Position numbers and translations under genes: made by a program | Notes under the pieces: model-generated | Told to the model about the DNA's origin: nothing | What the model saw: the letters and a program-made list of their open reading frames with translations, nothing else | Databases searched by the model: none | Shown: piece after piece, positions 6,640 to 44,549 of the stretch | How positions within the stretch are numbered: position 1 is the first letter of the stretch | Layout of the letters: the number at the start of each line of letters is the position of its first letter | Assembly: GCA_965649825.1 (NCBI GenBank) | Contig: OZ287697.1 | Location: 955,635 to 1,019,634 of the forward strand | DNA length: 64,000 nt | Direction of reading: 5' to 3' | Source: Penicillus capitatus | Taxonomy: Eukaryota > Plantae > Chlorophyta

Positions 6640-6790
6640 CCTCAGACACGCATGCCCGACTTGGCGAATCAAATCTGGCAGTACTCCACGAATGCTTTCA
6701 TACCAAAGATCGACAAGCAGTTCAAGGAGGCCGTCGCGCTGCTTGGATTTAACATTGAAAAGACTGGCAAAAAGGCAAACAGGACTGTGA
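6640..6790 (+). pseudogene. Sulfotransferase C-terminal fragment
   Basis: QTRMPDLANQIWQYSTNAFIPKIDKQFKEAVALLGFNIE aligns with QTRTHDSANQIWQYYTEDLMMKAYHYYKEDFDRFGFTVE of the gene at 1-848; no PAPS motifs upstream. Confidence 0.6.
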
Positions 6791-24752: not shown

Positions 24753-26224
24753 TCATTTCGGTCTCTCATCGTTCCATTGAGACAGAAAAGAGCTCCCGTA
24801 ATCGTAAAGGAGCTCCTCTCCGGCTCGGATGTCCCTCCCAGCGAAGATACCCACGCGATAGTCTCCATCAACCAGCAGGTACTTAACATAGCAATTGGGC
24901 TCCGAAGAGTGGTTGGCAAAGCGAAGCTTGTTTCCTCGATGATTTGCATCGATCACCGTCTCGGCCGTCGCACTGAAGAGATAGGATCTGTCTTCGATGT
25001 CGTAGACCCTCCCCCTTCTCTCAGCCTCTTCGTCGCTGATCAGCTCGCCCGTGTACTCGCCTAGGCAGTCCACTGTCTCGTCCCCTCTCTCCGATTGGCG
25101 TGCTTACCGATGAGCTCGTCCTTTTTGACGCTCTCGAGCATGAACGTTCCCCATCCGACGATCTCGGACAGCCCCATCGCCACTCGCTTGTTCCGTCGCA
25201 TCCGAATGCTCATGTTGCGGCAGCAGGACGTCCCGTCGGAACGGCACGAGATGCACACGTCTGGATCGCATTCCCTCGACGCCGCCACGCACGGACACCG
25301 TTGCGTCTCGCAGCGCTGCACGCACTTGCAGCCTTTCCAGGCATTGCCGCACACTCTCTTGAACGTCCGGTGTCCGTTCCAGCAGGCGCAGTACTTGTCG
25401 CAGAAGTTCTTGGACTTGACGCAGGGGCAGGTCGCTGAGCAGTTGGCGCGGCAGGCGCAGGGCAGGTACTGGTGCCAGAGCTCGGACTCCTGGTGACGCA
25501 GACGCTTGGCCACGACAGGCGCGCCCTTTCGGCACCCGACCGAGACCTTCTTCGACACCCTGCGTCTCCTCGGCAGACTCGCCATGCGTTTTGTCCCCAG
25601 TCCGGGATGTCTCTGCAAGTGTCGCCGGATCTGCGAGCAGGTCTTCGTGAAGACGAACTTCTGCAGCTCGCACGGACGCTCGCCGTAGACATCAAGCCCC
25701 TTCACACGATCTCTCCTCGAATGAAACGCCCGTCGACGCTCACCTTCTCGAGAAGGTCGATCTCGTCGCTGTCCCAGCCTCCCTCTCCCCACAGCGTCGA
25801 CGTCTCCACGGCGTCGTTCAGGTAGCACCTGGGACCGCATGGCTGTTCGGGCGCCTCGGCACGCGGCGGCGGCTGCAGTGCCGGCAGCACGCTCGATTCC
25901 GGATGCAGCGAGCAGTTGTAGCGCACACACCTTCGACAGAGCTGCACGACGGCGTCCTGCGCCGCCCGCGGAGCACTCTCCCGACGGAGCCTCTCCTCGA
26001 GCGAAGACGTCTCGACGCCGAGCCTCTCCGAGAGCAGAGGGACGAACGTCGCCGCCTCCCATCCCTCCTCCCGCAATCGGGCCAGGCAGAACTCCCTCCA
26101 CTCGACGTCTCTGGAGTCCCATCGGCGATGGCTCTCCGACTGCACCTCGTCTTCGTCTTCGCTCGCCGGCAGCGTCTCGCCCGTGTCGTCGTCGGTGTAG
26201 AAGAGGCGCTTGTGGTTGTGCACC
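24753..26224 (-). CDS. E(z): Enhancer of zeste (PRC2 H3K27 methyltransferase), 3' part: SANT, CXC and SET domains
   Basis: CXC (QYLPCACRANC..CPCVAASRECDPDVC); SET (GEYTGELISDEEAERRG, GNKLRFANHSSEPNC, GEELLYDY). Confidence 0.93.
26220..26224. repeat. 5-bp target-site duplication GCACC (left; right copy 34774-34778)
   Basis: GCACC|TGTG...CACA|GCACC. Confidence 0.95.
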
Positions 26225-26848
26225 TGTGAAAAAATGGCGCAAATTCTGACAAAACGATGATGGGACGTCTCTGTAATAATGATATTCCTGTCACTTGGCA
26301 CTTGTCGCGTCTTTGGCTGTGCGACGTAACCGTCGCTGCTGAGTCGCAAATAAGTCATGGTGACTGGGAGTGAGTTCCTAAGAAGTTCCTAGGAAACTTC
26401 TAGAAGTTCATAATGAATTACCTGGTTCCAATGGGAACCTCATTGCGAACTCACTCTTGAAGTTCAGCTGATTTTCCTGTCGTCACATCGGGGTCGGAGT
26501 ACTTAAGCAAGGTTTTGACACATAAAAACACCTTTCGTTTAAACATCAAAGTCTACACGTGTGTTCTGAATCGCATACAATCTGTCAAAACATTCGCTGT
26601 CTATTCCCAAAGTTGTAACAAGTCGCCCTTTGCTGCAAAACTGTTTGTGTGGCCTCCGAGCTTTCGTCCATCCTCATCCAATTTCAAGACTTCCGCTGCG
26701 CTTGTGAGATGAGCCAACACGGGGACGACTCCGGCAACAATGCTCCACCTCCACCTCCCGGCCAAGGCGAGGGAGAAATACGTGTCGTCCAAGCCGAGAA
26801 CGTCGAGAGGGAGGTACAGGAGGAGGGTGCCGGAGGGAGTTCTTCACA
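26225..26848 (+). repeat. 5' LTR (624 bp)
   Basis: TGTGAAAAAATGG...GGAGTTCTTCACA; no difference seen versus 34150-34773. Confidence 0.96.
26392..26406. promoter_or_regulatory. Perfect 3-unit heat-shock element in LTR (also 34317-34331)
   Basis: gGAAacTTCtaGAAg = nGAAnnTTCnnGAAn. Confidence 0.5.
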
Positions 26849-29800
26849 TGGTTTCGGAGCGAACGGTCCACCGCCACAGCAGCCTCAAGGGGAAGACCCC
26901 CCTCCCGAATTAAGGGGGATACCTGACGCCGCACTATTACAACACCTTGGTTGGTTACGACAAGAGGCACAAAGGCGCGAGGAGGAAAGACAAGCCGCTG
27001 CCGAACCGGCGGCCGTTCCCCCGGCCCAGGAAGACGCGCCCCCTAGCGAGGACCAACAAGTCATGAGTAGGTTTGAGGAACTTATCTTCGAGAACGCCCG
27101 GGCCTTCAAGCAAAGGCTGACGGACCTCGACCAATGGGGAGGAAGGCAATTGGAGAAGCTGCAAGACTGGTGGACAAGAAGACGAGCCCCGGTCGCCGCC
27201 CGACCTTGGGTGGCCCCGGCGGGCGAACCCGTTGTCGCACCAGAACCGGACGCGCCCCCTCCAGCCGTCAATCCTCGCCCACTCCGTACGTGGGCGCGAT
27301 GGAGGGCAATTTGGTATTCCCGTTTGCACACCCTTCTCCTCTTGGGACTAATCGGGACCGTCGTCGTTCTCACACGAAACAAGGGGCAAACGCCTAAAGA
27401 GCGTTTCGCCGAATACTACGCGGCGTTCAGTGACTTCGAACGTCAACCGGATGGCTGCCCCTGGGGGTCAAAGATGACAACGACGTGGAAATTTAACACG
27501 AAGGGCTGGATATCGGAATGCGTCCCGACAACGGACTTCGCATGGGACGAGCTCCAACTCAACTCGGCATTCACCGCGAGCATGAAGGCGGCGCTGGGGG
27601 CATATGTCGGTCTAGACCCCAAGACGTCGTGGGCCAAGCCAATTGCTGAGCTCTTCGTGGACACGCTAAGTCATGCGCAATCCAATAAGAACTCTGGCTT
27701 GGACGCACAACTCATCCTCCAACTTAGTAAGATGAACCACATGTTTGCACACATGCAGGCAGAACGCAAGCTTTACGAAAGCAAGCGGCCTGCGGAGCTC
27801 GAGGCATTCGCTCTGCCACTGTCCCAGGGGCAGAAGCGTATCGAAGAGACACTGTCCGGGGCGCACCGCATGATGAATCAATTGGCATCTGACGTAACCA
27901 GGGCGGTGCGCGACGAGGCGCTGAGGAGTGGAAAACTGTCCCAGGCACAGCTCGCCGACCTGGAGAAGAGGATCAAGGAAAGCCAGGATGCAAACACTCT
28001 GTCGCTGAGCAAGCAGATGCAAGGAATTGAGGAATCGATGACCCGGCTCAGGCGTCACTGCGACAACGCAAGGAAGCGCTGCGAAGAAGCGCTTGAGCTG
28101 GTCGATAAGGCAAGGCAGGACGGTATCATTGAGAACAATCTCGACACCCAACGCCTAAGGGAGCAGCTCGAGGACACCTTCGAAGACTTTCAGCGCTGGG
28201 GAGCAAAGACCACCGGCAGCCTGTTTTCTGCCTGGCCGTGGCTTCGCAGCGGACTCGGACTGCTCGCCTCGTTTTGCTCCTGGTTACCGTTTTGGGGCTG
28301 GGGCATAGTGATCTTCGTAATGATGTGCGTGGTCGCCGTGCTAGGCGCTCTGCTCAAGAAAACCGTGGATATGATCCACGGAGGACTGAACCTCATGGAA
28401 TCTTTGCAGAAGGCCGTCGAGAAGCTCGTGGAATGGGTGGTCGCCATCTGTGCGCTACCATTCCGACTCATCCGCTGGGTCCTGCGACTGGGCTGGTGGA
28501 CGGTCCGGATGTTTGTGGATAAGTTGGGGCAGGAGTTTGTGCTGGAACGACCAGCCCCGGCCTCCCCGCGACAGCGGAGTCCAAGGACACCACGAGCGGG
28601 CGCCGCCCGAGGGCGACGTAGCCGACGAAGCAGCCAAGGATCGGAGAATCAAGGACGAAGCAGCCAGAGTTCGGGACAAGGACACCAAGAAGAACAAGCC
28701 AGTGAGCCATCTCCGCAACAGGAGAACGGGGGACGAGCTGTCGTTCAAGATCCGTCACCAACCGCACCGAGAATCGAAGAGGTGGCCCAGGTATCGACAA
28801 ACGATCCCGGACCGCGTCAATCCCAAGACCGCACGCCGCCAGCGGGAAGAGTGGCTCCAGAGGTGCCAAGACCTGAAGCCCCTCCAGCGACTCCGCAAAA
28901 CACACCGCCGCCTCCACAAGTTCCACGGGAGGAGGTACCCCGCGAAGAAAGAAGAGGAGGCGGGCGAAGAGGACGAGGAAGACGAGGGGGTCGAGCGCCC
29001 GGAGGCCGAGGGCGCCAGGGACAGCGGTCGGGTGGCTACGCTTCTGACGAAACCCAAGACCGACGTCGGACGGAACCACGACTTGCGTGGGAACTCCGCC
29101 CTGTCAGTGATGGTGAAGACGAGAAGTTGCCACACTCGCGGAGCCCGGCACTGCCGCCGAATTTCGAGGCATATGAAAATATCCTGGACCGACTCCGCCA
29201 ACTGGAAATGGACAGAAGGCCCCTTGCGGCGGCACGTCCGCCGCCTCCGCCGATGGTCCGACCTCCCGCACCGCGCCCGGCGTCACCAATTCCCAGACGG
29301 GCTCCACACGTTGGAGGACCCTCGCTGCAAGTCACACATACGCCAAGACGCCCCAACCAGAGACGCTGTGCAAATTGCAACGCATCTGGACACGTAACTA
29401 ACGAGTGCCCACTCTTCTGGCAGCAAGTGGTTCAGCCTCCGGTCAGTGAGGTTCCGCGACAAGCAGATGAGGGACCAAGCGACAGGCCACCAGTGGCAGC
29501 GGTATGGGACGCCGCCACAAGTCGTGACCCATCGCGGCTCTACTACGTACGCGCCAAGCTGGCCGAGGGGGCTAGTCCCGTTCAGATGCTCGTGGATTCG
29601 GGATCCTCCGTATGCGTAATGCCCACGGAACGCTGCATACAAGGCGGTTGGGAAATCCAGCCCCTCCCGGAGCCAATGGAAGTCCAGGCTTTCAACGGCG
29701 TGGCCACCCAGGTTCGGGGCCGAGTGGGCCTCCCGGTGGACATCGGCGGAGAAACAAGACAGGTGCCATTTCTCGTAGTGGACGGGCCTGAGCACCCAAT

Positions 29801-29924
29801 CGTCGGCGTCAACGCTCTGCGAGATTTCGGCTGGAGTTTGGACTTCGCGGGAAACCGACTCGTGGCCCCGGATGGGCGCTCGGTCATGTGCGCGGCGGTA
29901 CAGGAAGCACACCGCCCAAACTAG
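26709..29924 (+). CDS. Retroelement ORF1: two-TM coiled-coil envelope-like protein + CCHC Zn knuckle + aspartic protease; no recognisable capsid
   Basis: TM1 LHTLLLLGLIGTVVVLT; heptad-rich luminal region; TM2 FWGWGIVIFVMMCVVAVLGALL; CANCNASGHVTNEC; MLVDSGSS. The ATG lies inside the LTR. Confidence 0.85.
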   Translation: MSQHGDDSGNNAPPPPPGQGEGEIRVVQAENVEREVQEEGAGGSSSHGFGANGPPPQQPQGEDPPPELRGIPDAALLQHLGWLRQEAQRREEERQAAAEPAAVPPAQEDAPPSEDQQVMSRFEELIFENARAFKQRLTDLDQWGGRQLEKLQDWWTRRRAPVAARPWVAPAGEPVVAPEPDAPPPAVNPRPLRTWARWRAIWYSRLHTLLLLGLIGTVVVLTRNKGQTPKERFAEYYAAFSDFERQPDGCPWGSKMTTTWKFNTKGWISECVPTTDFAWDELQLNSAFTASMKAALGAYVGLDPKTSWAKPIAELFVDTLSHAQSNKNSGLDAQLILQLSKMNHMFAHMQAERKLYESKRPAELEAFALPLSQGQKRIEETLSGAHRMMNQLASDVTRAVRDEALRSGKLSQAQLADLEKRIKESQDANTLSLSKQMQGIEESMTRLRRHCDNARKRCEEALELVDKARQDGIIENNLDTQRLREQLEDTFEDFQRWGAKTTGSLFSAWPWLRSGLGLLASFCSWLPFWGWGIVIFVMMCVVAVLGALLKKTVDMIHGGLNLMESLQKAVEKLVEWVVAICALPFRLIRWVLRLGWWTVRMFVDKLGQEFVLERPAPASPRQRSPRTPRAGAARGRRSRRSSQGSENQGRSSQSSGQGHQEEQASEPSPQQENGGRAVVQDPSPTAPRIEEVAQVSTNDPGPRQSQDRTPPAGRVAPEVPRPEAPPATPQNTPPPPQVPREEVPREERRGGGRRGRGRRGGRAPGGRGRQGQRSGGYASDETQDRRRTEPRLAWELRPVSDGEDEKLPHSRSPALPPNFEAYENILDRLRQLEMDRRPLAAARPPPPPMVRPPAPRPASPIPRRAPHVGGPSLQVTHTPRRPNQRRCANCNASGHVTNECPLFWQQVVQPPVSEVPRQADEGPSDRPPVAAVWDAATSRDPSRLYYVRAKLAEGASPVQMLVDSGSSVCVMPTERCIQGGWEIQPLPEPMEVQAFNGVATQVRGRVGLPVDIGGETRQVPFLVVDGPEHPIVGVNALRDFGWSLDFAGNRLVAPDGRSVMCAAVQEAHRPN
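26849..26861 (+). other. Primer-binding-site-like sequence
   Basis: TGGTTTCGGAGCG immediately after the LTR CA; resembles the iMet-tRNA PBS TGGTATCAGAGC with two mismatches. Confidence 0.6.
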
Positions 29925-32749
29925 CTGCCCCCTCCAAAAGCCACGGGAGGGGCGGCTTTGTTCGCGTGCACCAGCAGTGGGAAATCAAGGATGGAACCGG
30001 GATCTCAATCACTCCAAAGGGAGTCCAGCTGCAGAGTGGAAAGCCAAGATTCTTGCCGCCGAGAACTTGGGAACGCTGGTACCTCCCGTGGAAGATAGAA
30101 GTAGAAGGCGGCGTCACAATAGCTAGCTGCTTCCAACGGCCGGAAGTTCTGTCTGGAGTAGTGGTGACGTCTGGAGGAATGATACGTTGTGAGGTCTACA
30201 ATACGTCAGAAAGAGTGATCCGGATCACTCCGACGACGCCCCTCGTTTCCTTGCATGGACACGACAGCATCGAGGTAGTCCGGCTGGCCAAGATCAACAC
30301 GGTCGCCGCCGACACTCTCGCTGAGTCCCTGCGAGACGAGCTGGCGAGTCGTTTTCCTGACGTGAGCGACCTGAGCCGACACCCTATTGTGCCCGCAATG
30401 GAGCCCCTCCAAGTCAGAGCCGACGAAGTCTGCTGGACACCACCCAGAGAGCAAGGGTTGCGCACATCGTACAAGACAGAGCAGGTCGCCGACCGACGCA
30501 AGATAGCCGAACAGCTTGAGCACTATGTTCAGCGCGGCTATCTCCGACAGGTCTCCATGGGTGAGCGAGTGGCTCTAAGCCCCCTGTACCCCATCCCAAA
30601 GAAGGATGGGAGCTACAGGTTCACCAACGACTTTCGTTGGTTGAACGCTCACTTCAAGAAACATGGAATGACCCAGATCGACGTCTGGCGGCGGCTGTGG
30701 GATGTAGACCCGGCATGGAGGTACTTTGCGAAGCTGGACCTCAAGGATGGCTTCTTCGCCATCCCGGTGTGCCCAGAACTGCAGACTGCGTTTGCCTTCA
30801 CCTGGCAAGACCGCCGCTACGCCTGGAGACGCCTGCCGCAGGGATGGTCCTGGAGCCCGATCCTCTTCGCTGAGCGCGTTGCCGAGATCGTCCAGGGGCT
30901 CGGTGCGGTGCAATACGCCGATGACCTCCTTGTAGGCGGTGTCACTCCCGAAGAGCTCTGCGACCGCGTCCGTAGCATCTTCGCCCGTTTCCAGGAGTTC
31001 GGGCTCAAGGTCAACCTCGCGAAGACCGAGCTCCTGCGAACGAAAGTCAAGTTCCTGGGGATGGAACTGTCGCATGGGTCGTGGACGCTGACAGACTACT
31101 TCCGCAGTCGCTGGACCCAACTCGGAGAGGTGACGCACTGGAAAGATCTTGAGCGCCTCATCGGAGTGCTCTCCTATCTGAGGCGAACCATTGTGGACCT
31201 CGAGAGATTGATAGCGCCCCTCCGACAGCTGCTAGCAGAAGCCAAGGCAAGAAAACAAGACGGCAAGTGGTGGGACCGAGCCCGACGGGAAGTCTGGGAG
31301 GTGCTTCTGCGAGCCCTCGATCGACAGGTATTGCTCGAACTGCCTGGTCTCCGGACGACGCAATACATTCTCGAGACGGATTGGTCTGGAGAGCACGCGG
31401 GATATCTGCTGTGGGCCAAAGGGCCAAACCACGAGCACCTCGTCGACCTCGGAAGCAAGAGTGTGCCGGAAGTGACTTCATCTTTCCTCGGGGAACTCAA
31501 GGCAATCGTGTGGGCTTGTCAAGCAACAAAGCCGTTGCGAGGGGACTTTCCTTTGCTCATCCGGACGGACAACCAAGCGGTCGCCGAGCAACTGAGCACC
31601 AGCACGCCAAGTCTCAAGGACAAGCGAGTACTGCGCCTACTAGGGTGGCTCCTAGGAAACGAAAACTTCATTGTCGAATTCGTTCCCGGGGCAGAAAACC
31701 AAGGCGCGGACCTCTTATCCAGACCCCGTAAGGGAAAGGGCGCAGCCGAGGTGTCTCAGGCAACGGCGGGCCCGACACGAGGCCAGCTGAGGCAGATCAA
31801 GAAGGCTCACGAAGGGCACTTCAACTGGCAGACAACGCTGAGGAACCTCAAAGCAACGGGAGCAGATTGGCCAGGGATGAGAACACATGTCCGACAGTTC
31901 GTCCAAGGGTGCAGGCAATGTCAGGCCTACGGACGACCCATTCAGCGACCCGTCTGGGGCTCGTGGGATTGCCCCTGCCCCAACGACACGGTCTTTTGTG
32001 ATTTTCTCGGACCCATACAATGGGAAAAGGAGGAAGACAACGTGCACGTGTTTCTCATGATAGACGGATTCAGCCGCTACGTCATGCTCACAGCTTCGGC
32101 AGGGCCGACGGCCGAGGCCGCGAAGGCGGGACTGCGTAAGTGGATATATCACTTCGGGCCCCCTCGCCGGCTCGTGAGTGACCAAGGCGCAGCTTTTGTA
32201 TCCATCGACTTCGAAGAGTATTGCAGCCGGCGCCACGTGGAGATGGCACTGTCTCCTGCCTATGCTCACTGGAGCAATGGAATGGCCGAGCGAGCAATTG
32301 GCACCATCCTGGGTCGAATCCGAAGAGAAGGCCCAAGTGCGCCATGGCCGTCACTCCTCCAACGTATCGAGAAGGCGTATAACGAATCATGGCACTCTGC
32401 GCTTGGATACGCTCCGAGTCTCGTCATGACGGGCAAACGAGCCGATGGTACGCGGCTCCAGAAGGAGGAACTGGACAGGGTCCAAGGAAGAGCATGGAAG
32501 CGTTCGGACGACCAACGGCGGAAGCGAAGAACAAGACACGAGCGGACCATCCCGACGAGAAGAAACCTACGAGTTGGAGACAAGGTCGCAATCATGGTGC
32601 CGCGGCCAGCACATAAGCTAGCGGCCCAGTGGGAGTCGGGATGGCGCGTCCGCGCTATTGTCACTCCACATATCATCGAGGTCGAAACACTGGATGGGCG
32701 GAATCGCCGGTCGTGTCACTCGCACCAGCTACGGCTTCTGCAGATGTGA
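29888..32749 (+). CDS. pol: Retroelement Pol: dUTPase-like - reverse transcriptase - RNase H - integrase
   Basis: RT (YRFTNDFRWLN, KLDLKDGFFAI, LPQG, YADD); RH (LETDWS, ELKAI, TDNQA, ENQGADLLSR); IN (H-H-C-C, CDFLGP, SDQG, NGMAER). Confidence 0.96.
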   Translation: MRGGTGSTPPKLAAPSKSHGRGGFVRVHQQWEIKDGTGISITPKGVQLQSGKPRFLPPRTWERWYLPWKIEVEGGVTIASCFQRPEVLSGVVVTSGGMIRCEVYNTSERVIRITPTTPLVSLHGHDSIEVVRLAKINTVAADTLAESLRDELASRFPDVSDLSRHPIVPAMEPLQVRADEVCWTPPREQGLRTSYKTEQVADRRKIAEQLEHYVQRGYLRQVSMGERVALSPLYPIPKKDGSYRFTNDFRWLNAHFKKHGMTQIDVWRRLWDVDPAWRYFAKLDLKDGFFAIPVCPELQTAFAFTWQDRRYAWRRLPQGWSWSPILFAERVAEIVQGLGAVQYADDLLVGGVTPEELCDRVRSIFARFQEFGLKVNLAKTELLRTKVKFLGMELSHGSWTLTDYFRSRWTQLGEVTHWKDLERLIGVLSYLRRTIVDLERLIAPLRQLLAEAKARKQDGKWWDRARREVWEVLLRALDRQVLLELPGLRTTQYILETDWSGEHAGYLLWAKGPNHEHLVDLGSKSVPEVTSSFLGELKAIVWACQATKPLRGDFPLLIRTDNQAVAEQLSTSTPSLKDKRVLRLLGWLLGNENFIVEFVPGAENQGADLLSRPRKGKGAAEVSQATAGPTRGQLRQIKKAHEGHFNWQTTLRNLKATGADWPGMRTHVRQFVQGCRQCQAYGRPIQRPVWGSWDCPCPNDTVFCDFLGPIQWEKEEDNVHVFLMIDGFSRYVMLTASAGPTAEAAKAGLRKWIYHFGPPRRLVSDQGAAFVSIDFEEYCSRRHVEMALSPAYAHWSNGMAERAIGTILGRIRREGPSAPWPSLLQRIEKAYNESWHSALGYAPSLVMTGKRADGTRLQKEELDRVQGRAWKRSDDQRRKRRTRHERTIPTRRNLRVGDKVAIMVPRPAHKLAAQWESGWRVRAIVTPHIIEVETLDGRNRRSCHSHQLRLLQM
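29915..29960 (+). other. -1 programmed ribosomal frameshift signal (slippery heptamer + H-type pseudoknot)
   Basis: C_CCA_AAC directly before the ORF1 TAG; stem 1 CCCCTCC/GGAGGGG; stem 2 AAAGCC/GGCTTT; the -1 frame is the pol ORF (PKLAAP..). Confidence 0.8.
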
Positions 32750-32978
32750 CGCACTCATTAGGTAATCCGACGGGTTGCTGACGGATACACCTTTGTCTTC
32801 CAAAGTTCATAACGGTTTGCGACGGATGACCAAATGCGTAGGGAAACTCCCGATGGTTGGAAGATAGCTTCCTCCAGCGGAGCGAAGTTCCCGACGGATG
32901 CCATGAACTTTGGGCGAACCATAGGATAACCGCCAGTCAGGGCGCGCGCTGGGCACGTGTCCTCGGAGGTTACGGGGG

Positions 32979-32984
32979 TATAAA
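32979..32984 (+). promoter_or_regulatory. Putative internal TATA box for ORF3
   Basis: TATAAA in GC-rich context 39 nt before the ORF3 ATG; CACGTG at ~32954. Confidence 0.45.
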
Positions 32985-33022
32985 GGGACCGCCCGCACCG
33001 GGATTTCACCATTTGCTCGCTT

Positions 33023-34042
33023 ATGTCTTTCGCAGTACTCAGCTTTTTTGCGCTCGTGTTTACGCTCACTCTCCTGACATTCATTGAATCGTGGCCGGCC
33101 GTAGCCCAGGAATTCGTCGTTGGCCTTTCCGTCTTTGTCGCGTTCCGAGTTCTCGAGGGCGCCTTCGCTCTCATTTTCGAAGCCATGAAGAGGGAAAGAA
33201 GCTCGTCCGCGTCAGAGGGAAACCTGCACCGCCTCACCTGCCTCAGGCGCGTGACCCCAACCCCGTCACCAGACAACCTGGCCCCTACCACGGATCGCAG
33301 CATGGCGGAAATGAGGGCGGCCGAGGTAAGGGAGCAATGTCGTTCCCTGACCCTGGCCGACCTCATAGCCGAGATTGAGCGACGCTGCGCAGAGGGACCC
33401 GGCACACCAGCCACAAGAGGAAGCACCCCTGTCGAAGCCACACGTGGAGGAAACAGCCAAGGCGAAACAAGCCGGCGCAGGAGCGGCCGCGGAAGTCGCG
33501 GGGAGGGCTCGCGGCGAAGGATGCGCAGCCCCTTGCCCCCTCGACCTCCGTCCCCTACCCCTCCGGAATCGCCGCTCCTCTCAGCGCGAGCCCACCCACC
33601 GCCCCTCACCGCCATTTGCCGACCGCCAGGACCGCGATACATTGCCGCAGGGGAGCTCGGGGAGATCAAATTGCCACACCGTTTCCTCATTGACCCCGAG
33701 CTCTCGGGTCACGTGGTCAGCAGAGCGACTGCGGAACTGCTTGGACTCCGTGTCCAGCCTCTCCAAGGGCCCCTCCCGCCAGGAATCGAGGGACGTGTCA
33801 TTCGCAGTGAAGGCGGCACAAGCGTGATAGTGGGCAGCACCGCCGCGAGGGTGAAGATCGGCCCCCACATGGAAGTCTGCAATTTCACCGTCGCGGGAGA
33901 CAAGGTGGAGACGAGGCTGGGGAGAGAGATAATGCAGCCTTTCGACCTGACGCGAGATAGAGTAAATGGAAACCTGTACCAGTCGCAGACAACGAAGGTG
34001 GGGGTTTCGGACCCCCGGGCGCTCATACGCCGTCGCGCCTGA
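33023..34042 (+). CDS. Retroelement ORF3: two N-terminal hydrophobic helices, coiled coil, Arg-rich tract, degenerate retropepsin-like domain
   Basis: MSFAVLSFFALVFTLTLLTF..FVVGLSVFVAFRVLEGAFALIF; HRFLIDPELSGHVVSRATAELLGL..CNFTVA..RLGREIMQPF mirrors the LID(T/S)GA..ILGxDFL layout. Confidence 0.75.
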   Translation: MSFAVLSFFALVFTLTLLTFIESWPAVAQEFVVGLSVFVAFRVLEGAFALIFEAMKRERSSSASEGNLHRLTCLRRVTPTPSPDNLAPTTDRSMAEMRAAEVREQCRSLTLADLIAEIERRCAEGPGTPATRGSTPVEATRGGNSQGETSRRRSGRGSRGEGSRRRMRSPLPPRPPSPTPPESPLLSARAHPPPLTAICRPPGPRYIAAGELGEIKLPHRFLIDPELSGHVVSRATAELLGLRVQPLQGPLPPGIEGRVIRSEGGTSVIVGSTAARVKIGPHMEVCNFTVAGDKVETRLGREIMQPFDLTRDRVNGNLYQSQTTKVGVSDPRALIRRRA

Positions 34043-34149
34043 AGAACCATCTGCTGTCATCAGTATTTCAACTAGGTAGGCTGTGTGGGCTGGTTTTCTT
34101 CTTTGCTCCGCACATCGGAGTTTGCACAACGGGAATGCGGGTGCGCCCA

Positions 34150-34773
34150 TGTGAAAAAATGGCGCAAATTCTGACAAAACGATGATGGGACGTCTCTGTA
34201 ATAATGATATTCCTGTCACTTGGCACTTGTCGCGTCTTTGGCTGTGCGACGTAACCGTCGCTGCTGAGTCGCAAATAAGTCATGGTGACTGGGAGTGAGT
34301 TCCTAAGAAGTTCCTAGGAAACTTCTAGAAGTTCATAATGAATTACCTGGTTCCAATGGGAACCTCATTGCGAACTCACTCTTGAAGTTCAGCTGATTTT
34401 CCTGTCGTCACATCGGGGTCGGAGTACTTAAGCAAGGTTTTGACACATAAAAACACCTTTCGTTTAAACATCAAAGTCTACACGTGTGTTCTGAATCGCA
34501 TACAATCTGTCAAAACATTCGCTGTCTATTCCCAAAGTTGTAACAAGTCGCCCTTTGCTGCAAAACTGTTTGTGTGGCCTCCGAGCTTTCGTCCATCCTC
34601 ATCCAATTTCAAGACTTCCGCTGCGCTTGTGAGATGAGCCAACACGGGGACGACTCCGGCAACAATGCTCCACCTCCACCTCCCGGCCAAGGCGAGGGAG
34701 AAATACGTGTCGTCCAAGCCGAGAACGTCGAGAGGGAGGTACAGGAGGAGGGTGCCGGAGGGAGTTCTTCACA
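34150..34773 (+). repeat. 3' LTR (624 bp)
   Basis: Direct repeat of 26225-26848. Confidence 0.96.
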
Positions 34774-35209
34774 GCACCTTCCGCTGCTGCTGATTGGCCG
34801 ACACGAAACTCCAGCTGGTGTAGACCGGAATGGTCTGACCAGCAGGCAGGATGCGCGCCTTGCGGTACTGAGGCGCGTCGGAGGAAAGGCTGTCGAGCCT
34901 GACCCCGATGCTCCTTCCCGCCTCGAGGCGTTCGGATGGCCCCTTCTGCCTTCGCTTGCGTCGCGATCGCTCGTGGGCGAGGGTGTCCGTTTCGACGTCG
35001 GTCGCCTCGGAGGCGACCCTGTCCGACTGCAGGAGACGGAGCGGAGCGAGCGCGGCCTCCAGCGACTGTCGGTTGCGTCTGAGTTCGGCAGCGGCCTGCG
35101 ACGCACGGGTCTTCTCGAAGACGGCACGCGACTCCTGGTAGCTCTCCTCGAAGCGCTCCTCGAGGCTTCTGCTGCGCGAGGCGTCGTCGCACAGGGTCGC
35201 GTTCATCAT
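34774..35209 (-). CDS. E(z): Enhancer of zeste, 5' part (separated from the rest by the LTR element)
   Basis: IPVYTSWSFVSANQQQRK + VHNHKRLFYTDDDTGETLPASEDE joins across the element and matches the CLF/SWN-type YTTWIFLDRNQ..RRIYYD..GE motif. Confidence 0.85.
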
Positions 35210-35432
35210 CTCGGCGGGGCGTTGCTCAGCTTGTCGTTTGCGAAAGTCGAGTGGACGACCGACAGAACCGTACGTCACATCAAAAGAACCGACATGTTAA
35301 TCGTTCAGCCAAAGTGGAAGCCGTTACGGGTCGAGATAGTTAGGGACGGACTGGTGCGTGCCAGACCGACCGCAAGAGAGGCGGAGGTCAGCTTCTTTGC
35401 GACCCCTCCCGTGCCTCTGCATGCGATCTTCG

Positions 35433-36856: not shown

Positions 36857-37501
36857 GACGTCTAGTCTGCCGTAAAGAATGCAGGACCGTCGTCGCGAAG
36901 GCGGTGTTCGTACGGACGGACCTCCGCACGACCTTCATTCGCTGTACGACGGACCGACTCTCCATGTCCGACTTCGACGCGATCCTCTCGGAGTACCTGC
37001 GCCTCAGCGGGTGGCCAGCCCTCTCTGTTCACCGCGCTCTGGACGACGGGCGCCGTGCGTGCAGGTATGTCCCGTCCTCGACGCAGGAACCTTCCGAAGA
37101 AACGGCGCGTCTGCGGGAGAGACTGAAGCACCGCCTGGTCGAGTTGGCGAGCAGACCGGCCAGCGCCAAACCGGCTCACTGACGCAAGGAGATACATCTG
37201 TACGAAGTGTGTAGAAGACGACGAAATGACCCGTTTTAAGAACCTCCTTTCCGAAGGAACAAGAACAGCAGCATCACTGTTGAACGAAGTAACAGAACGC
37301 ACGAGGTCCTTGCGTCAGTACCAAATGAAGACTCTCTGAGAAAATCAGGGAGAAGCCACCCCATTCACACCGCTGAAGTTAACGAATGGCTTAATGGTCT
37401 AAATGCAGAGGCTATTAAAGCAGGTCAACGTCGCCGGATTTGGCATTCGTTTCGTCGCTATTTTGAGAGCGAGTTGTGTTTTCTTCTGGAAACTCGCCAA
37501 G

Positions 37502-38768
37502 ATGCAGACGACAAGCCTCTCGACTCTAATCGTCGTAGCGCTTTTGTGCGCCTGCAATGGCGTTTTCGGGTCCTGGATCCCGACTAGTAAGATGACGGCG
37601 CAAACAGATCTTGACGGCAGAGACTCCGATCGTAAGTTTTTGCCTCGGGACGAAGTTACGTTAAATTCCTCGCTGCAGACGCACATGCACGCCAGAAAGA
37701 CGACCTTCTACCGTATGTTTTCGCGAAGCCACAGGTGCGTATGTTCTTTCCGAGGTATTTTTTTGACGGCGCTGTATTTTAAAGGACGCCAACGGCGACG
37801 TGGATAAAAGCGCCACCGATGTGTTCAAGATGCTCGGCGGCAACGCACAGAGCCGCCCATGTTGCACGTCATGGGGACCTGGCCGCGTCGACTGCTTCAT
37901 CCGAGCACCGAAATCGAACGTCATGCACATTTCCATTGACAACGGAGTCTACAGCGAATGGGAGGATCTCGGCGGTGTGATCGTCGACGAGATCGAATGC
38001 GTCAGTCGCGACGTTGGCCTCATCGACGTCCTGGTGCTGGACGTCGGAATTTCACTCTACGACAAGGTGTTTTCTGATGGAAAATGGAGCGATTGGCAGG
38101 GTAAGGGTGGGAAGTTGATGGAAGTTCCTTCCTGTGCTGTCCGAACGCCCAAAATCGTCAACTGCATGTTGAGAGGAACGACGAACAGAGGCTATCACAT
38201 TGGAGCTACTGATGGCAAATGGACGTCGTACACAGACCTGGCAGGGGGCTTGTTCAGCCCCCTTGGATGTTCGGCAAGAGACGCGAACAACTTCAACTGC
38301 TTCGTCAGCGGAATGAACTTGAACCTTTATCACAGATACTGGATCCAGGGAGTAGGATGGCAGGGCTATGAAAATCTCAAAGGTCTGGTGAAAGGTCAGC
38401 CATCGGTGACGACGTGGGACGCTAACAGGATCGACGTTTTCTCCTTGGGCGTGAGAACGAACAGCGTCATGCAGAAGACATGGATAGGTGGTAAAGGATG
38501 GCAGGAGTGGGTCGATCTGGGAGGCGTCTTCGACTCGGCACCCGAATGTGTGACCACCGGTGTCGGCAAGATCCACTGTTTTGCCATTGGTGACGATTCC
38601 TATCTCTACAAGAACGACTACGCAGATGGAAAGTGGGGTGGCTGGGTCAACACGCACGTGCCGTTCCTCGAGACACCGTCCTGTGTTGTTTCCAATGCAA
38701 ACGAAGTGTCCTGTTACATGCGCGGATTCAACAAAAAGCTGATCGAGGTCGTCTACAAATATGCCTGA
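37502..38768 (+). CDS. Secreted PLL-like lectin-like protein (B3; paralog of A3), 3 exons
   Basis: Same signal peptide, intron structure and seven blades as 7446-8713. Confidence 0.82.
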
Positions 38769-39429
38769 AGTTCTGCCTGCTTGATTGGTCTGCCAAACAA
38801 ATGAGTTGGCAATTCGTTTTTATCTGTGCTGAGTTCTGTCTGCCAAATCCATCAAATACTCAACAGTCCAACAACTGTGGAACAGTTTAATGTGCCATTT
38901 TTTGCGACATTCGCTGCAGATGCGATGCGCCGACGATCGAAGAAAACGATTGCTGTCGTGTCGGCCAGAGAAAGCGGCGCAGTTCGTCTCTTCTGCTTCG
39001 ACGATGGAAGTACCGAACTCTAACGGCGATGTCATCGGAAGCGTCGCGTTGGTTCTTCGTCTCCAAACCACGGTGCTTTCGCCTCTCACAGGCAGATCGA
39101 GAACCAAGTCTTTCCCCCTTCTCGGAGACAGCCATTTCAATATTCTGTATGAAATGAAGAAGTACAGAATCCTTGAACTCAGATTCGGGAACTTTTTCTA
39201 GGTGTTGTGGCAGGGATTCCCCACGCGTTCGACGAGACACGAAGCGTCCGTTATTTTGATGTCGTCACCTGCCCGATCGACCGCTCTGCTCTTTGATCTT
39301 GGTGTTCGCACACGTCTTTGTTTGAACTGTCGCGCAATGGAAAACGATACCTCTCACGCGCAAGACTCGCTAGATTGAACGGATAGCATTGGTACCGAAT
39401 TTGCAAGCCCATCGAATAGTCTTTCACAG

Positions 39430-39575
39430 TCCTGTTTGCCTTTTTGCCAGTCTTTTCAATGTTAAATCCAAGCAGCGCGACGGCCTCCTTGAACTGCTTG
39501 TCGATCTTTGGTATGAAAGCATTCGTGGAGTACTGCCAGATTTGATTCGCCAAGTCAGGCATGCGTGTCTGAGGC
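39430..39575 (-). pseudogene. Sulfotransferase C-terminal fragment (arm B copy)
   Basis: Mirror of 6640-6790. Confidence 0.58.
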
Positions 39576-40650
39576 AGGACTTTTGGGGAACGGTTCATGC
39601 ACATGACAAGAAAGCACAGACGCAACACCAGAGAAAACAAGTTCTCTCGTCGGCGATCAGATCGACTGTCTCCCTCATTGATCTATCCTCTCACTTCATC
39701 GACGAATCGTCGCTTCGAGCACCATATTTGGTTCTATCGGTTGTCGAGTTCTTGTCACTTCTACAATTGTTACAGTGATTGTTATTTTGGTCAGTTTTGA
39801 TGACCGAGCTCATCGAATAACAACAAGACTCACAGTTGTTTGCGATACCTACCATCTTTGAAAAAACATACACCCGCGAAGGCCGCAAGGGTGACTGACA
39901 TCGTTGACAGCTCGGAGGCAATCGGTGATTGTGGCCCCTACTTGTTAAAGCTGTTTGAATACAGAAGGTTGGTCGGGCCCGTGTCGAGGGGAACTGTAAA
40001 GCCTGTGGTTTGACTGACAGAGACAGATGGGATTTACGAGGTGATAAGATGACAATAAAAAGCTAAATTCTTTGTAAGAAAACGAGAACCCTGTTTTTTC
40101 GCTTTTACTCTGACACGCGTGCCCATGAATTACCCACAGGAACATCTGTTACCTTCGCCGTCAGATCATCAGGACTGCTGCCCGCTTCCGGCCGCGCCAC
40201 AATCAACATATTTAGACGCTTCTCTTTTATAACTCCGCCTTGTCTGTCATTTCTCGCTTGTTGCAGCCTGCTTTGACGACACGCAATGCGTCTGTCATAA
40301 AACTACTTGAACGACCTTCCACGGCTTTAAGCTAAGAGAGATTCTTGACAGACCCGGCGGCGAAATATAGCTCGTTATGAGTATTGCATCCATCCATCGA
40401 CGAGGAGACATTCGATGTATGATCGAAAAAAGGAAAGGATGCTTTTGAAGTTTTTTCTGTTCTATCTACGTTCTCTACCTAATTGAAAACCGTCTTAGAG
40501 AAAGGAAGGCTTTGTTGGGCGATCCAGCAGCATGCGTTGCAATGGTCCAACTTCGACGTATCCGGTATTGTATTCCGTCTGCTGTGCGACGCTGTGTCCT
40601 GTCATGTCAAACACATAAATGTTTATTCTCACCGGAACAGTAACGCTATT

Positions 40651-42285
40651 TTTTTAGATTGCTTGCTTTTACAACTTCTTTTTAAGAAGATCAGGAGTGC
40701 GACTGTACACTAAGTGTAGCAAACAGTATTCAATCCGCTAAACAGAGAGACCGGCAGGGGTGAATGAAATGAAAGGTCCAGATCAGGTGTTTCCATGCGG
40801 GAGCCTGGGGAGTCGGACGAACGGGCGGATCGGCAATACCATGTAATCCAGGGTAGCAAACGGGGCCTTGTGTTCTCCCAGGAGTTGCTCGTGAAGTGTC
40901 TTCGAAATGAAGACTTTCAGGTTCTTGCTCGGTGTCCATTCGGGAAGGGGCTGTCCTGAGGTATCGCGCTTCCTACGATTCAATCGATGCGGCGCGGCGA
41001 GGTGCATTTCTTCGAGTTCGGTTGCCGGTATCTTCCAGCGGGCTGCGTTCTGTTCTGCAATGGCGGTGATGGCTGCTTCCGGGTCGATGTCTGTGTCGAC
41101 ATTGCTGATGACTACTGGGATCTTGTCTTTCGTGGGCGATAGGTACGGATTGTTGACTTCGAAGGTTCCAATATCGTCGAGCTCCAGGTCCCAACTGGCA
41201 CCGGCGCATTCTAGGCAGCGGTCGAGCGCTCTCTCAAACTGCTGGATCAGGTCGGAGCGGATTTGCACGTAGTATCTGCCGCCGTGGTCAGAGCGGATGT
41301 CTTCCACATATTCCTTCAAATTCTTGATCTTCAGAGTCCGTTCCAGGCTGATGCCAAGCTGGCGAAAGGACGGACGATCTCCCTTCAGGGTCACTGGGCA
41401 GAGCTGGAAGCTGCGTTCATCGCATCGGATCTGGGCCTTGATCGCGTTAGTTTGTCTCCGGATCTCTCGTGCCTGGGTGGTCCGTTGGCGCTGGGCGGGG
41501 GTCGTGGTCTGGGGCTGCTCTGAGGGCAGGGACTGACGGGCGGCGTCGCGGTACGAGCGTGTGACTTCTCGAACGGTGCTGTCCGCAGAAGGTGTAACGT
41601 GGGTCATAGGAGCTGGGGGTGTTGGAGCAAACGAGACCATGGATTTGTGGAATCCGAGACAGGTTCCCATCTCCCCGAGACGAGTGGAGATTCCCATGAG
41701 CGCTTCTCGGTTTTCAGGTGGAGCTTGTCCAATGGCGTATGCCAGATGAGCCAGCGTAGTGTCGATGTCTTGGGCGAGTGCTTCCAGGAGATCTGATGGG
41801 GTAGCTTTTTCCTTGTACCGGCAGATCTGTGAGAGACAGGAAGACTTAGCGTGCGGGTCAAAGATGGGGCCTTCTGAGGCGAGTAGAAGCGAGGTTCTAG
41901 CGTCCTCGTGGCGTCGGACAAGTCGGAGCTGCACGGCATCTCGCTTTTCATGGGCTGCCAGGTAAGCTCTGATTTTCTCGATGAGCTGTGCGGGGTCCAA
42001 GGTGGCCGCAAGCTGGGTGGAACAGGCTCGGAGTGCAGTGTTGACGAGAATGAGCTCCGCCTTGCTCATCGCCTCGAGTACCTCGGGGGTCTGACGCAGG
42101 TCGCGTCGATACCGAACCGTGTTAGCCGCCTGAGCAACCGCCGTGCGCACTGGGTCAGGGGCGGCGTCAGGAGCTCCAGACTGAGATCCGGAAGGTTGCA
42201 TCGTTCGCTTTTGCGCGTGCAGGCACCGTCGTTCGGCAAGGGTTTTGAAACGGCGAAACGAAAGTGCCGTACGGGATTGCTCTCT
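40651..42285 (-). mobile_element. Non-autonomous LINE derivative (ORF1 only) with 16-bp TSD and short poly(A)
   Basis: TSD GAACAGTAACGCTATT at 40635-40650 and 42286-42301. Arm A has a single empty site (~5563-5578). A-tail and TGTAA signal at the 3' end. Confidence 0.85.
40783..42201 (-). CDS. LINE ORF1 (gag-like) protein, ends just before the usual CCHC knuckles
   Basis: 472 aa; IPVVISNVDTDID..AAITAI and ..LPIRPFVRLPR resemble the pre-C2HC region of I/Jockey/R1-type ORF1. Confidence 0.65.
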   Translation of the reverse strand: MQPSGSQSGAPDAAPDPVRTAVAQAANTVRYRRDLRQTPEVLEAMSKAELILVNTALRACSTQLAATLDPAQLIEKIRAYLAAHEKRDAVQLRLVRRHEDARTSLLLASEGPIFDPHAKSSCLSQICRYKEKATPSDLLEALAQDIDTTLAHLAYAIGQAPPENREALMGISTRLGEMGTCLGFHKSMVSFAPTPPAPMTHVTPSADSTVREVTRSYRDAARQSLPSEQPQTTTPAQRQRTTQAREIRRQTNAIKAQIRCDERSFQLCPVTLKGDRPSFRQLGISLERTLKIKNLKEYVEDIRSDHGGRYYVQIRSDLIQQFERALDRCLECAGASWDLELDDIGTFEVNNPYLSPTKDKIPVVISNVDTDIDPEAAITAIAEQNAARWKIPATELEEMHLAAPHRLNRRKRDTSGQPLPEWTPSKNLKVFISKTLHEQLLGEHKAPFATLDYMVLPIRPFVRLPRLPHGNT

Positions 42286-42840
42286 GAACAGTAACGCTAT
42301 TGGAATTTTTGCAAAAGCTCTCTGCTCTTTGGGTCCCGTTGGAGGTGGGTACTCGAATCGCCGAAGACAACCATCGCGATTGTTGCGCGGTCAAATAACC
42401 ATCCAGGCGCCTCACGGCCGCATAGAGCAGCGGATGGAGAATCTCCACGAACCTCCTTCACAACGATAGGGATGGTTGTCGATTGCATGCATGAGTTCGC
42501 AGTTGTTAGAGCTTACGGTTAGGAATTCTTTACCGCCATGGGTATTGAAGGGCGACAATTCGCGTAGGAACATCTCGAGTTCTTGGCACTTCATCCGAGT
42601 GTGACTTTATCTGCTTCGTTCGCGCCGAATCTGGATTAAGTTCATTATCATTGTTTTTCGATTCTCGACATGTCCTCCATCATCAAAGCGTACGTGTGAC
42701 GAGTGCCTTGGATCACAGAGGCGGTGGATGCATGCCCGTTCGAGGAGTGTCCTCACGCACGAGGAAACCATGACAAGTGGCGTGATGCCATAAAAATTCG
42801 GACGGGGTATTAGAACCAGACGATTTTGTCGTCTATGTCT

Positions 42841-44079
42841 TTAGCTTGAGTAAGTCACTATTGTCACAGGTGTTCCCTGCGCGACTCGCATCCGACGAGG
42901 GCTGACGTCCGGGTCAAATTCGCTACTGGCAAAATCGTATGCGATGAAAACCGCCTCTTTGTTATATCTTCTGGCAGCACACGTGATCTCGCGCTCGTTC
43001 GAGACGACACAGGATGGATGATCCAGGAAGAAGCCAAAGGATTCGATCTAGTCCGTCCACTGCTTCCGGTAAAACGAATTCCTGTAGAGATAAGATCCTT
43101 CACCAACGGCGAAGCAGTGGATGATGCCGACTACAGGTGTCACACACTCGGGTGCGGAACCGAAGACGCCTCCCAGATCCTCCACCGGTCTCTGAGCAGC
43201 GCCATCGAAGGCCAGATGCAGAACAGCTCTGCTCTCCGCCGACATAACAAACACGTCGATTCTGTTTTGGTTCCAGGTTGTCACAGATGGTCGGCCAGTT
43301 GCTTGGACACCTAGATCCTCCCACTCGATCCAGTCGTCTTTCCATCGCTGCACCGACAGGTGCATGTGATCTCCGCCGTTGAAGCAATCGAAGTGACCGG
43401 CGGACTTAGCGGAACACGCCATCGGCGTCCAGGCCCTGTCACCGAAGTTGTCGATAAAAATCTAGTCGCCGCTGACGGATCCGATGTGTTGATATGTACC
43501 GTCCATCTTTCTCGACATGCAGTTGACGATGCTCTTTGTCCGCGCCACGCAGGAGGGGACCTCCATCACCGACCCACCCAGGGACTTCCAGCCACTCCAC
43601 TGACCCCACGCGTAGGTATTGACGCGCAGACGGGAAGATCTGTCCTGCACGAACACGTCGATGACGCCGACGTCGCGACTCACACATTCGATGTCGCCGA
43701 TGATGACGATATTGCCCAGGTCCTGCCACTCGCCATCGGCTCCCTGGATGTGCAGCACGTTTGCCTTCGGGCCTTGAACGAAGCAGTCGATGCGGCCCGG
43801 TCCCCACGACGTGCAGCACGGTCGGCTCTGTGCGCTGCCGCCGATTCTTCTGAATTTCTCGCGAGGAGATCTAGCCTCGACCGCGTTCGAATAGAGACAA
43901 GGCTCGCCGCCGACGGTCGCCACAGAAACGTCGGTTTCCGAGAGTTCCCCAACGGCGTCTTCCGCCCTCGGCCTGCATCCAGTCGCTTCTGGAAGACCGG
44001 CTGAGACGGCGCTCGACTTGACGGCCGCCGTCATCAAAGCGGCGACGACCGTCAGTAGAAGAGAGTGCTCGCGTGGCAT
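42841..44079 (-). pseudogene. PLL-like lectin (B2; paralog of A2) with two in-frame TAGs, both at Trp positions
   Basis: TAG at 43462-43464 (GD*IFID vs GDWIFID in A2) and at 43048-43050 (shared with A2). Confidence 0.75.
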
Positions 44080-44549
44080 CTCTCACTCGGCGTACAGACA
44101 GACAAACGACAGTCGGAGAGAAACGTGCAGGTCAACCGATGCCTTGATGCGAATTGCCGTGTCAACTGAGACTCATGCGTACGACACGAACAAAGTACTG
44201 GACGACGCATCCGAGAGAGACACGTACTTGCAGAGTACGGCGTGACTTTCCGAAGAAAGAGTGTGGACATCGTCACAGTGATGGGCTGATAAATTTGTGC
44301 AAACGCCCGAGAAAAAACATGTCGCTTCTCCGATGGTTTCTGTTCTAAAGTACTGGAGAACAAAGGAAGGCTGACGTCGAGTACTCGAACCTGATGAAAG
44401 TTCAAGTCCTGGCCCATTTGGACAGTCACCAATCAAATGGAGAAGCCTTACACAATGGCTGCTAGTTTGACAGGTTAAAGATTTGAACAGTAACAGCTTG
44501 TAAAAGCGAAGGTGGTTGCCAAATCATGCGTTTGGCAGACCGGCAGATC

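Follow-up and report, generated by a model that had tools for sequence, protein, structure and literature searches.

A Ty3/gypsy-order retrotransposon of Penicillus capitatus with a predicted membrane module and no detectable capsid in its Gag

LTR retrotransposons and retroviruses are regarded as sharing the CA fold as the protein that forms their particles, and Gag-Pol normally enters the shell via its capsid domain. In the spherules of positive-strand RNA viruses, such as those made by brome mosaic virus 1a, a membrane compartment houses template and polymerase instead of a capsid core. Membrane proteins also have a part in several retroelements. Foamy virus Env is described as having a long N-terminal leader and type II topology and as driving budding, and in the same account it is able to release capsid-less subviral particles (PMC7828637). 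MLV glyco-Gag is described as a Gag turned into a membrane protein through an upstream start (PMC7764263), and for Env-less LTR elements of the MDG1 group a transmembrane sORF2/FAST-like protein for cell-to-cell transfer is described (PMC11952523). No description of a capsid-less Gag layout with a membrane module was found in the literature searched, nor of an intermediate Gag with a signal-peptide-like start, a coiled coil and a TM ahead of CA.

The element and its Pol

Positions 26225-34773 of the window, the stretch of 64,000 nucleotides that was analysed, are a young, intact LTR retrotransposon of Ty3/gypsy order, all features of which lie on the plus strand. The 624-bp LTRs (26225..26848 and 34150..34773) begin and end with TG...CA, are identical, and are flanked by the 5-bp target-site duplication GCACC (26220..26224 and 34774..34778), for which the empty site exists in reads: the joint 26219>34774 is present in runs X2 and X3, both from one sample. 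The primer-binding site TGGTTTCGGAGCG (26849..26861) begins with TGG at 26849, is common to 17 sites in the lineage and is read through as SHGFGA by ORF1, whose start codon lies inside the 5' LTR; a matching tRNA was looked for and not found. A purine-rich tract ahead of the 3' LTR (34131..34141) resembles the GGGAAGCG tract of the relatives. An assembly artefact was ruled out, since homologues exist in other records and 2 studies, with 4 runs between them, have the element in their contigs; the best of these runs may be the window's own source. Among the sequencing runs listed as containing the element there is none of RNA. No joints within ORF1 occur in the contigs of 4 runs, contigs being prone to drop rare variants. 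A single match, at chance level, came from an Rfam scan of the window, and 9 relatives had none; a search of viral contigs for relatives of the element was likewise negative.

Pol (29792..32749) lies downstream of ORF1 in the -1 frame, in keeping with the frameshift of the initial annotation. The slippery site C CCA AAC, a stop codon and a hairpin make up a predicted -1 frameshift signal (29915..29955), with a z value for the hairpin of -0.6 in the window element and -1.4 to -3.7 in 4 relatives. An N-terminal domain of about 115 aa is followed by RT, RNase H and integrase, giving the order PR-RT-RH-IN with the catalytic motifs intact (RT YADD at 30914, integrase HHCC and DDE). Pfam places RT at 268-426, an RNase H-like domain at 494-616 and the integrase zinc motif at 668, a spacing that leaves no space after RT; the retroviral tether domain and second RNase H are therefore judged absent. 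A dUTPase identity of the N-terminal domain is unsupported, with no Pfam match and dCTP deaminase reaching only E 0.7. No separate env glycoprotein gene was recognised after pol, where the 339-aa ORF3 (33023..34042) joins two N-terminal hydrophobic segments through a linker to a protease-like C-terminal domain without the catalytic DSG.

ORF1: membrane module and capsid slot

ORF1 (26709..29924) is an open frame of 1071 aa with an N-terminal region, a membrane module, a linker, NC and protease, in which a capsid was not detected. Hydropathy alone (Kyte-Doolittle) was used to call the membrane segments, and it recovered both transmembrane segments that had been annotated, near 27320 and near 28300. 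The first, residues 206-222 (27324..27374), is a predicted signal anchor with a net charge of +4 on its N-side; it peaks at 2.21 over 17 aa and is short and weak (1.38) in the relative L065. The second, residues 529-549 (28293..28355), is a predicted transmembrane helix with KK directly after it and peaks at 2.43 over 21 aa and 3.16 over 17 aa. Behind it follows a further hydrophobic stretch (1.74 in the window element, 1.91 in L066), which as a possible third TM would leave NC-PR on the wrong side of the membrane.

Between the two segments, residues 226-528 would be luminal. Most of this region is a helical domain (residues 226-500, 27384..28208), in which only one of the two annotated cysteine pairs is a general feature: 250/271 and 451/458 are both present in ORF1, while 250/271, a C-x20-C, alone is kept in all 4 of 4 aligned homologues. 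For the long heptad repeats that had been proposed, a crude custom score at residues 444-471 exceeds every one of 200 shuffles in the window element and in L065 but is matched by 19/200 in L066 and 38/200 in P0108, so that the signal exists in two of the four long modules. The suggestion of a class-I-fusogen-like ectodomain is not supported: the N-glycosylated ectodomain of such proteins has no counterpart here, with no sequon N-x-S/T between residues 223 and 528, and no structural match emerged from what is a low-confidence model. This model, of residues 190-620, reached a pLDDT of 49.8 from an alignment of 4 sequences, for which reason the fold searches are not decisive; the best Foldseek matches had E 0.46 in pdb and 0.10 in viral, the best VIA matches (Z 8.2) were generic helical hairpins, and neither a capsid nor a fusion protein was among the matches listed, which at this pLDDT excludes nothing. 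PPR repeats and coiled coils, which appeared as PDB profile matches of the module, were taken as composition artefacts. Of 7994 scored candidates in a word-indexed search with the same residues, P0004 and P0005 alone matched, none of 7999 shorter candidates did, and HMMER retrieved 3 matches (P0004, P0005, P0108) from 1.84 billion proteins.

The remainder of ORF1 agrees with what had been read from it. Residues 585-602 (28461..28514) form its strongest amphipathic helix, the W/R-rich FRLIRWVLRLGWWTVRMF, with a moment of 0.70. The Pro/Arg/Gly linker described as disordered extends over residues 614-886 (28548..29366), of which 11% are hydrophobic and 61% are P/G/R/Q/S. A single CCHC zinc knuckle (residues 887-900, 29367..29408; Pfam zf-CCHC E 0.02) and a retropepsin-type protease with DSG (29526..29903; Pfam E 2e-7) are fused behind it. 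The idea of a membrane protein in the Gag position holds in so far as the module is present, but the slot that houses the capsid in relatives is occupied by the disordered linker.

The absence of a CA domain was upheld by Pfam, a lineage profile and profile-profile comparison, none of which found a capsid in ORF1. Of 6 capsid-bearing relatives scanned with Pfam, L099 alone gave a capsid match, a weak one, and the other 5 gave none, as did L067. Because Pfam overlooks even these capsids, which are judged divergent for this reason, a lineage profile was built. Its CTD part recovers each of 8 capsid-bearing relatives when that relative is withheld (10.8-33.5 bits), and none of 7 module-only ORF1s, the best of which scores -0.9; the element in six frames scores -4.5 and -2.3 bits versus 126.9 and 71 for the held-out L101. 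Comparison of capsid and ORF1 by hhalign gives a probability of 0.1%. The best 75-aa window of the capsid slot has a hydrophobic content of 0.23, versus 0.31-0.41 in 7 real CTDs, and in L001 the slot measures merely 42 aa. As a control, the capsid domain of L089 was modelled at pLDDT 78: among 50 VIA rows the first 16 are without exception capsids (Copia, PEG10, PNMA2 and Arc among them), with Z 9.3 and an rmsd of 3.0 over 84 aa to the Copia capsid, and Arc and HIV CA rank best in Foldseek, yet with E of at least 0.2. On this model, the capsid fold of the lineage matches Copia/Arc capsids.

Relatives, selection and domain exchange

The relatives fall into a graded series: capsid only (L093-L099), membrane module plus capsid (L067, L089), module plus CTD only, that is half a capsid (L090), and module without capsid (L001, L065, L066, L091, L092, P0108 and the window element). 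Wherever both are present, in L067, L089 and L090, the module is N-terminal to the capsid. The first hydrophobic stretch sets in 8-12 residues past the start in L089, L090, L091, L092 and L001, as that of a signal peptide would, and these ORF1 starts appear signal-peptide-like. The short modules of the capsid-bearing L089 and the capsid-less L001 and L091 are weakly homologous (11.6-15.9 bits), and hhalign gives only 1.7% for the long module of the window element against the short module of L001 and L089-L092. The coiled-coil part of L001, L091 and L092 measures about 50-100 aa.

The window element, L066, L091 and L092 each have identical LTR pairs and open ORF1 and Pol. RT-RH has a dN/dS of 0.035 between the window element and L066; between the window element and L065 the helical domain has a dN of 0.136 with dS saturated. 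Such substitution rates show the membrane module and Pol to be evolving under purifying selection, and a decayed pseudo-gag was ruled out by the open frame, the identical LTRs and this selection. Identity to L065 is 78% in the helical domain, 75% in RT and 51% in the protease; identity to P0108 is 19% in the helical domain and 94% in the protease. By these identities the helical domain is conserved at the level of RT and is exchanged among families as env genes are.

Capsid-less elements fall into two separate RT groups (AU p 0.029 and 0.041, the group having been named after the tree was made), which is borderline evidence from the RT tree for two separate capsid losses. The RT group around the window element comprises 26 rows, with ORF1 known for 4 and a capsid in 0 of these 4. 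The lineage stands apart from 5 ordinary outgroup elements with a support of 100/99, in a tree that contains no named Metaviridae. Capsid-only, module-plus-capsid and capsid-less elements reside together in one assembly, G002, which holds 8 capsid-bearing matches; this co-residence means that a capsid could be supplied in trans.

Interpretation and comparison with known systems

The reading preferred here, with a probability of roughly 0.55, is that a capsid-free Gag with a predicted two-pass membrane module tethers NC, protease and Pol, and that a membrane pocket or vesicle replaces the shell. Translation of ORF1 would start within the LTR, with segment 1 inserting the protein into the ER and segment 2 bringing NC-PR back to the cytosol, so that residues 226-528 would remain in the lumen. 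The slippery site and hairpin point to a -1 frameshift that would yield a membrane-bound Gag-Pol. The helical domains may then cluster while the amphipathic helix curves the membrane, the CCHC and the Arg/Gly linker would bind the RNA of the element together with the primer tRNA, and the protease would release RT and integrase for reverse transcription inside the membrane compartment. Historically, a membrane module may first have joined ahead of a normal capsid, which was later trimmed and lost, probably more than once. A more far-reaching version is held tentatively, at somewhat under even odds: an autonomous element without a retroviral capsid, in which one membrane-spanning Gag-Pol makes a lipid-bounded RNA particle that may bud and move between cells or thalli via an exchangeable surface domain, with living relatives keeping each step from capsid to membrane.

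Dependence on a helper is the alternative that survives best, though it is unlikely. The element would provide its own Pol and module and take its capsid from co-resident module-plus-capsid relatives by co-assembly on a shared membrane, as the mixed population of G002 would permit and as the origin of capsid-less groups at least twice beside module-plus-capsid elements might suggest (at the same borderline AU values). However, ORF1 has no capsid domain with which to join a shell, yet Pol is intact and constrained, and all 4 known ORF1s of its RT group are without capsid. Between families, modules either cannot be aligned or are only some 20% alike, a dissimilarity that makes such co-assembly unlikely. 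Somewhat less probable again is a cytosolic helical domain that forms a new, non-CA shell or scaffold, the hydrophobic stretches anchoring it on a surface such as the ER leaflet or a lipid droplet. The missing glycan sequon, the weak segment 1 of L065, the several amphipathic stretches and an RT-like conservation between the window element and L065, as a lattice protein might have, all suit this arrangement; the signal-peptide-like starts of 5 relatives do not, the conserved C-x20-C would fit a luminal disulfide, and the coiled coil of L001, L091 and L092 is small for a shell. An extremely diverged capsid concealed in the helical region is very improbable even given the divergence of lineage capsids and an ORF1 model too poor to rule a fold out, as the lineage profile sees all 8 known capsids and none in ORF1, the module precedes a true capsid in three relatives, and the predicted helices, in a low-confidence model, are 30-59 residues long versus mostly 7-18 in the control capsid model.

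Capsid-less elements that are young, intact and under selection, with neighbours on the tree in which a full or half capsid follows the membrane module, allow a test of whether a protein shell is required for reverse transcription and integration or whether a compartment suffices. The intermediate Gag, with its membrane module ahead of CA, would represent an independent way to an envelope, via fusion to Gag instead of capture of a separate env, and a single polyprotein packaging RNA at a membrane is of interest for vector design.

Among known systems the element is most readily placed beside Ty3/gypsy elements (Metaviridae, such as Ty3-G), with which it shares TG...CA LTRs, a 5-bp TSD, a PBS, CCHC and PR-RT-RH-IN, with RNase H immediately after RT; a comparison of its Pol with Ty3-G Gag-Pol gives E 1e-26, and its relatives bear a true CA. 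It differs from them in having no detectable CA, a membrane module heading Gag, an extra ORF3, and a protease that is encoded ahead of the frameshift, within ORF1. In PDB its RT matches the Pol of foamy virus best (E 6e-35), ahead of Ty3. No sequence match was found between the module and foamy Env, nor a fold match among the rows listed for a model of pLDDT 49.8. As described, foamy Env offers a precedent for particles shaped by a membrane protein on its own, but it has a separate gene beside a Gag that retains its capsid, whereas the membrane protein of the element is fused to NC-PR-Pol. MLV glyco-Gag is, in the account cited, a type II accessory beside a normal Gag, whereas the membrane form of the element is its sole Gag and its NC-PR is predicted to remain cytosolic. 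The sORF2 of MDG1-group elements is described as a short separate ORF that moves capsids, of which this element has none. The spherules of brome mosaic virus, whose proteins are unrelated, offer an analogy for how the element may work.

The element, its host gene and its reading frames

Window 26225-34773 holds a complete LTR retrotransposon whose identical LTRs (624 bp; 26225-26848 and 34150-34773) start with TG and end with CA. GCACC lies on both sides, and contigs of two sequencing runs from one sample (X2 and X3) connect 26219 directly to 34774, which is the empty site. The insertion lies in a minus-strand frame running into CXC and SET domains (Pfam). The interrupted gene (24753-26219 and 34779-35296, minus strand; empty allele in X2/X3), whose motifs we take to indicate an E(z)-type Polycomb methyltransferase, presumably resumes past the 3' LTR. 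Genes of the window have an intron-like structure and include SET, V-ATPase and Chlam_PMP-repeat genes, the last type also adjoining the relative L091. This gene content hints at a siphonous green alga as the host. A large inverted duplication (1582-9054 versus 37161-46267, mostly 85-99% identical) carries a family of repeat-rich genes of about 330 aa, which resemble beta-propeller lectins; the one copy scanned had no Pfam match. A 535-aa ORF (40783-42390, minus strand), present within the duplicated block, missing from its partner and without Pfam match, may belong to a non-LTR element as its ORF1.

The Gag-position protein ORF1 (26709-29924) has its start codon within the 5' LTR, and its frame crosses the primer-binding site. 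The primer site TGGTTTCG(G/C)AGC is common to the lineage (17 sites). An ATG (MVSE...) formed by the final LTR base and the primer site (window 26848-26916) recurs in L067, L088/L089 and L091-L098, and is an open Gag start in 11 of the 17 sites; for the window, L065, L066 and L090 the frame behind this ATG is just 15-38 codons long, and the Gag start lies within the LTR in a different frame. Pol lies in the -1 frame, past the heptamer C CCA AAC and the stop codon of ORF1; relatives have the same heptamer or A AAA AAC. The hairpin after this predicted frameshift site is not significant in the window (z -0.6) and reaches z -2.7 to -3.7 in three of four relatives. Pol follows the Ty3/gypsy order of RT, RNase H and integrase. 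Between frameshift and RT lies a domain of about 115 aa (29948-30292), conserved across 10 aligned elements, for which Pfam gave no match and dCTP deaminase came up at E 0.7 only; a true dUTPase sits between RNase H and integrase in the subclade of P0026 and P0034, relatives of L001.

ORF3 (33023-34042) encodes two hydrophobic segments, a linker and a protease-like domain that lacks DSG and scores 24.8 bits against a lineage protease profile. It resembles a miniature ORF1 whose protease-like part is predicted to be catalytically dead, and it might serve to regulate the protease or as an additional membrane component. Copies also occur at L066 10242-11295 and G003:C1:703861-704314; dN/dS against L066 is 0.14, the L066 copy being frameshifted within the protease-like part.

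Relatives and the search for a capsid

Searching with Pol identified 30 proteins at E <= 1e-40 (7990 candidates scored), whose alignment, used in further scans, located 64 metagenome loci, four of them close, and three genome loci. Further elements were located in the genomes G001-G003, from which 16 stretches were taken. These genomes carry bacterial labels, and the element-bearing stretches are probably eukaryotic contamination; G002 and G003 contain many intact eukaryotic LTR elements, in G003 inside a 6.9-Mb contig. Among the elements listed, ORF1 takes four forms: L093-L099 and L101 carry a capsid and no module; L067 and L089 combine a hydrophobic module with a full capsid; L090 pairs the module with just the C-terminal capsid domain (CTD); and the window, L065, L066, P0108, L001, L091 and L092 have the module without any capsid. 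The capsid-only L094, L095-L099 and L101 have no CCHC knuckle, and L094 has an additional N-terminal domain of about 90 aa. The related element L100 has 715-bp terminal repeats containing an ORF with hydrophobic segments.

Pfam overlooks the capsid in five of six capsid-bearing relatives of one scan and in L067. As it is thus non-informative on capsids in this lineage, eight candidate capsids were aligned as a lineage profile. Their capsid nature was controlled with a structure model of L089 (pLDDT 77.7): in VIA the top 16 of 50 matches were all capsid proteins (Copia Z 9.3, rmsd 3.0, 84 aligned), and in Foldseek the majority of matches shown were Arc, HIV or MLV CA, at E of at least 0.2. Leaving one out at a time, with the near-twins L095/L097 held out jointly, the CTD profile recovered 8/8 capsids at 10.8-33.5 bits; held-out L101, an easy control, scored 126.9 bits (full) and 71 bits (CTD), and an ordinary outgroup Gag 5.1-9.3 bits (CTD).

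None of seven module-only ORF1s exceeded -0.9 bits with the CTD profile, and the six frames of the element reached -4.5 bits (full) and -2.3 bits (CTD). Profile-profile comparison of lineage capsid and ORF1 gave a probability of 0.1%. Between module and knuckle, where relatives carry the capsid, the window protein is 11% hydrophobic, its best 75-residue window scoring 0.23 versus 0.31-0.41 in seven CTDs; in L001 this stretch has 42 residues. The AlphaFold model of ORF1 190-620, with long helices and a hairpin between C250 and C271, is poor (pLDDT 49.8), so fold searches with it decide nothing. Sequence profiles thus detect no capsid in this element of Ty3/gypsy order, and a capsid is very probably absent from ORF1. 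A short linker helix, YENILDRLRQLE (window 29157-29213), is seen again in L066, P0108, L065 and L001; by eye it looks similar to the final helix of the relatives' capsids and is possibly a capsid remnant. That a whole capsid is hidden in ORF1 is highly improbable.

A predicted membrane module as proposed substitute for the capsid

The two hydrophobic segments, amphipathic helix, linker, single CCHC and protease that the initial annotation placed in ORF1 were all found. Its suggestion of a class I fusogen gained nothing specific in its favour, and no N-glycan sequon lies between the two segments. L089-L092 and L001 have a strong, signal-peptide-like hydrophobic stretch (2.2-3.0) starting 8-12 residues past the start; that of L067 is weaker (1.68). 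The coiled coil that follows has a score reached by 0-3 of 200 shuffles in L089, L091, L092 and L001, by 16/200 in L090 and by 91/200 in L067. In most, a Trp-rich stretch, the second hydrophobic segment and the amphipathic helix come after it. The first segment of the window group lies internally and has a net charge of +3 to +6 on its N-side. The weakness of this segment in L065 and a third hydrophobic stretch after the second segment count against a membrane reading, as does the profile-profile probability of 1.7% for homology of the long to the short module, whereas weak matches link the short modules of elements with and without capsid. On balance, the module is likely a membrane protein.

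The most likely mechanism, at a probability of roughly 0.55, is that ORF1 and ORF1-Pol would sit in the ER membrane, exposing NC, protease and Pol to the cytosol, and that clustering together with the amphipathic helix would form a pocket or vesicle replacing the capsid. Borrowing of a capsid from co-resident relatives, which do co-occur in assembly G002, is unlikely, and a cytosolic shell of non-CA type slightly more so.

Lineage history and exchange of the module

The element is real, young and under selection. Identical LTRs with open ORF1 and Pol are found in the window, L066, L091 and L092, and RT-RH dN/dS is 0.035 for window/L066. The RT-RH tree had 21 rows and did not include L094, L097, L102, four outgroups and most proteins without known ORF1. 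One group (96/95) unites the window with L065, L066 and L001, and the capsid-bearing L067 (99/98) and L089 (94/96) attach to it next; L091/L092 stand separate. Placing every capsid-less element in a single clade is rejected (p 0.029 with 21 rows, 0.041 with 20 rows), a borderline result for a group defined after seeing an earlier tree, with ORF1 known for a minority of rows. Capsid-only L093 groups with L090, which has module and CTD, so loss or gain of the module, too, happened repeatedly.

No description of such a lineage was found in the full-text literature searched; subscription journals, Repbase and Dfam lay outside this scope, so the families may already be catalogued with the feature unremarked. 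Copia elements are scarce in Bryopsidales, according to 10.1101/2023.11.22.568388.

For window/L065 the helical domain (dN 0.136, dS saturated) is conserved like RT-RH (78% versus 75% identity) and the protease is 51% identical, while for window/P0108 the helical domain is 19% and the protease 94% identical. Because these identities cross over, the module has been swapped between families as one unit, much as env genes are exchanged as a unit between families.
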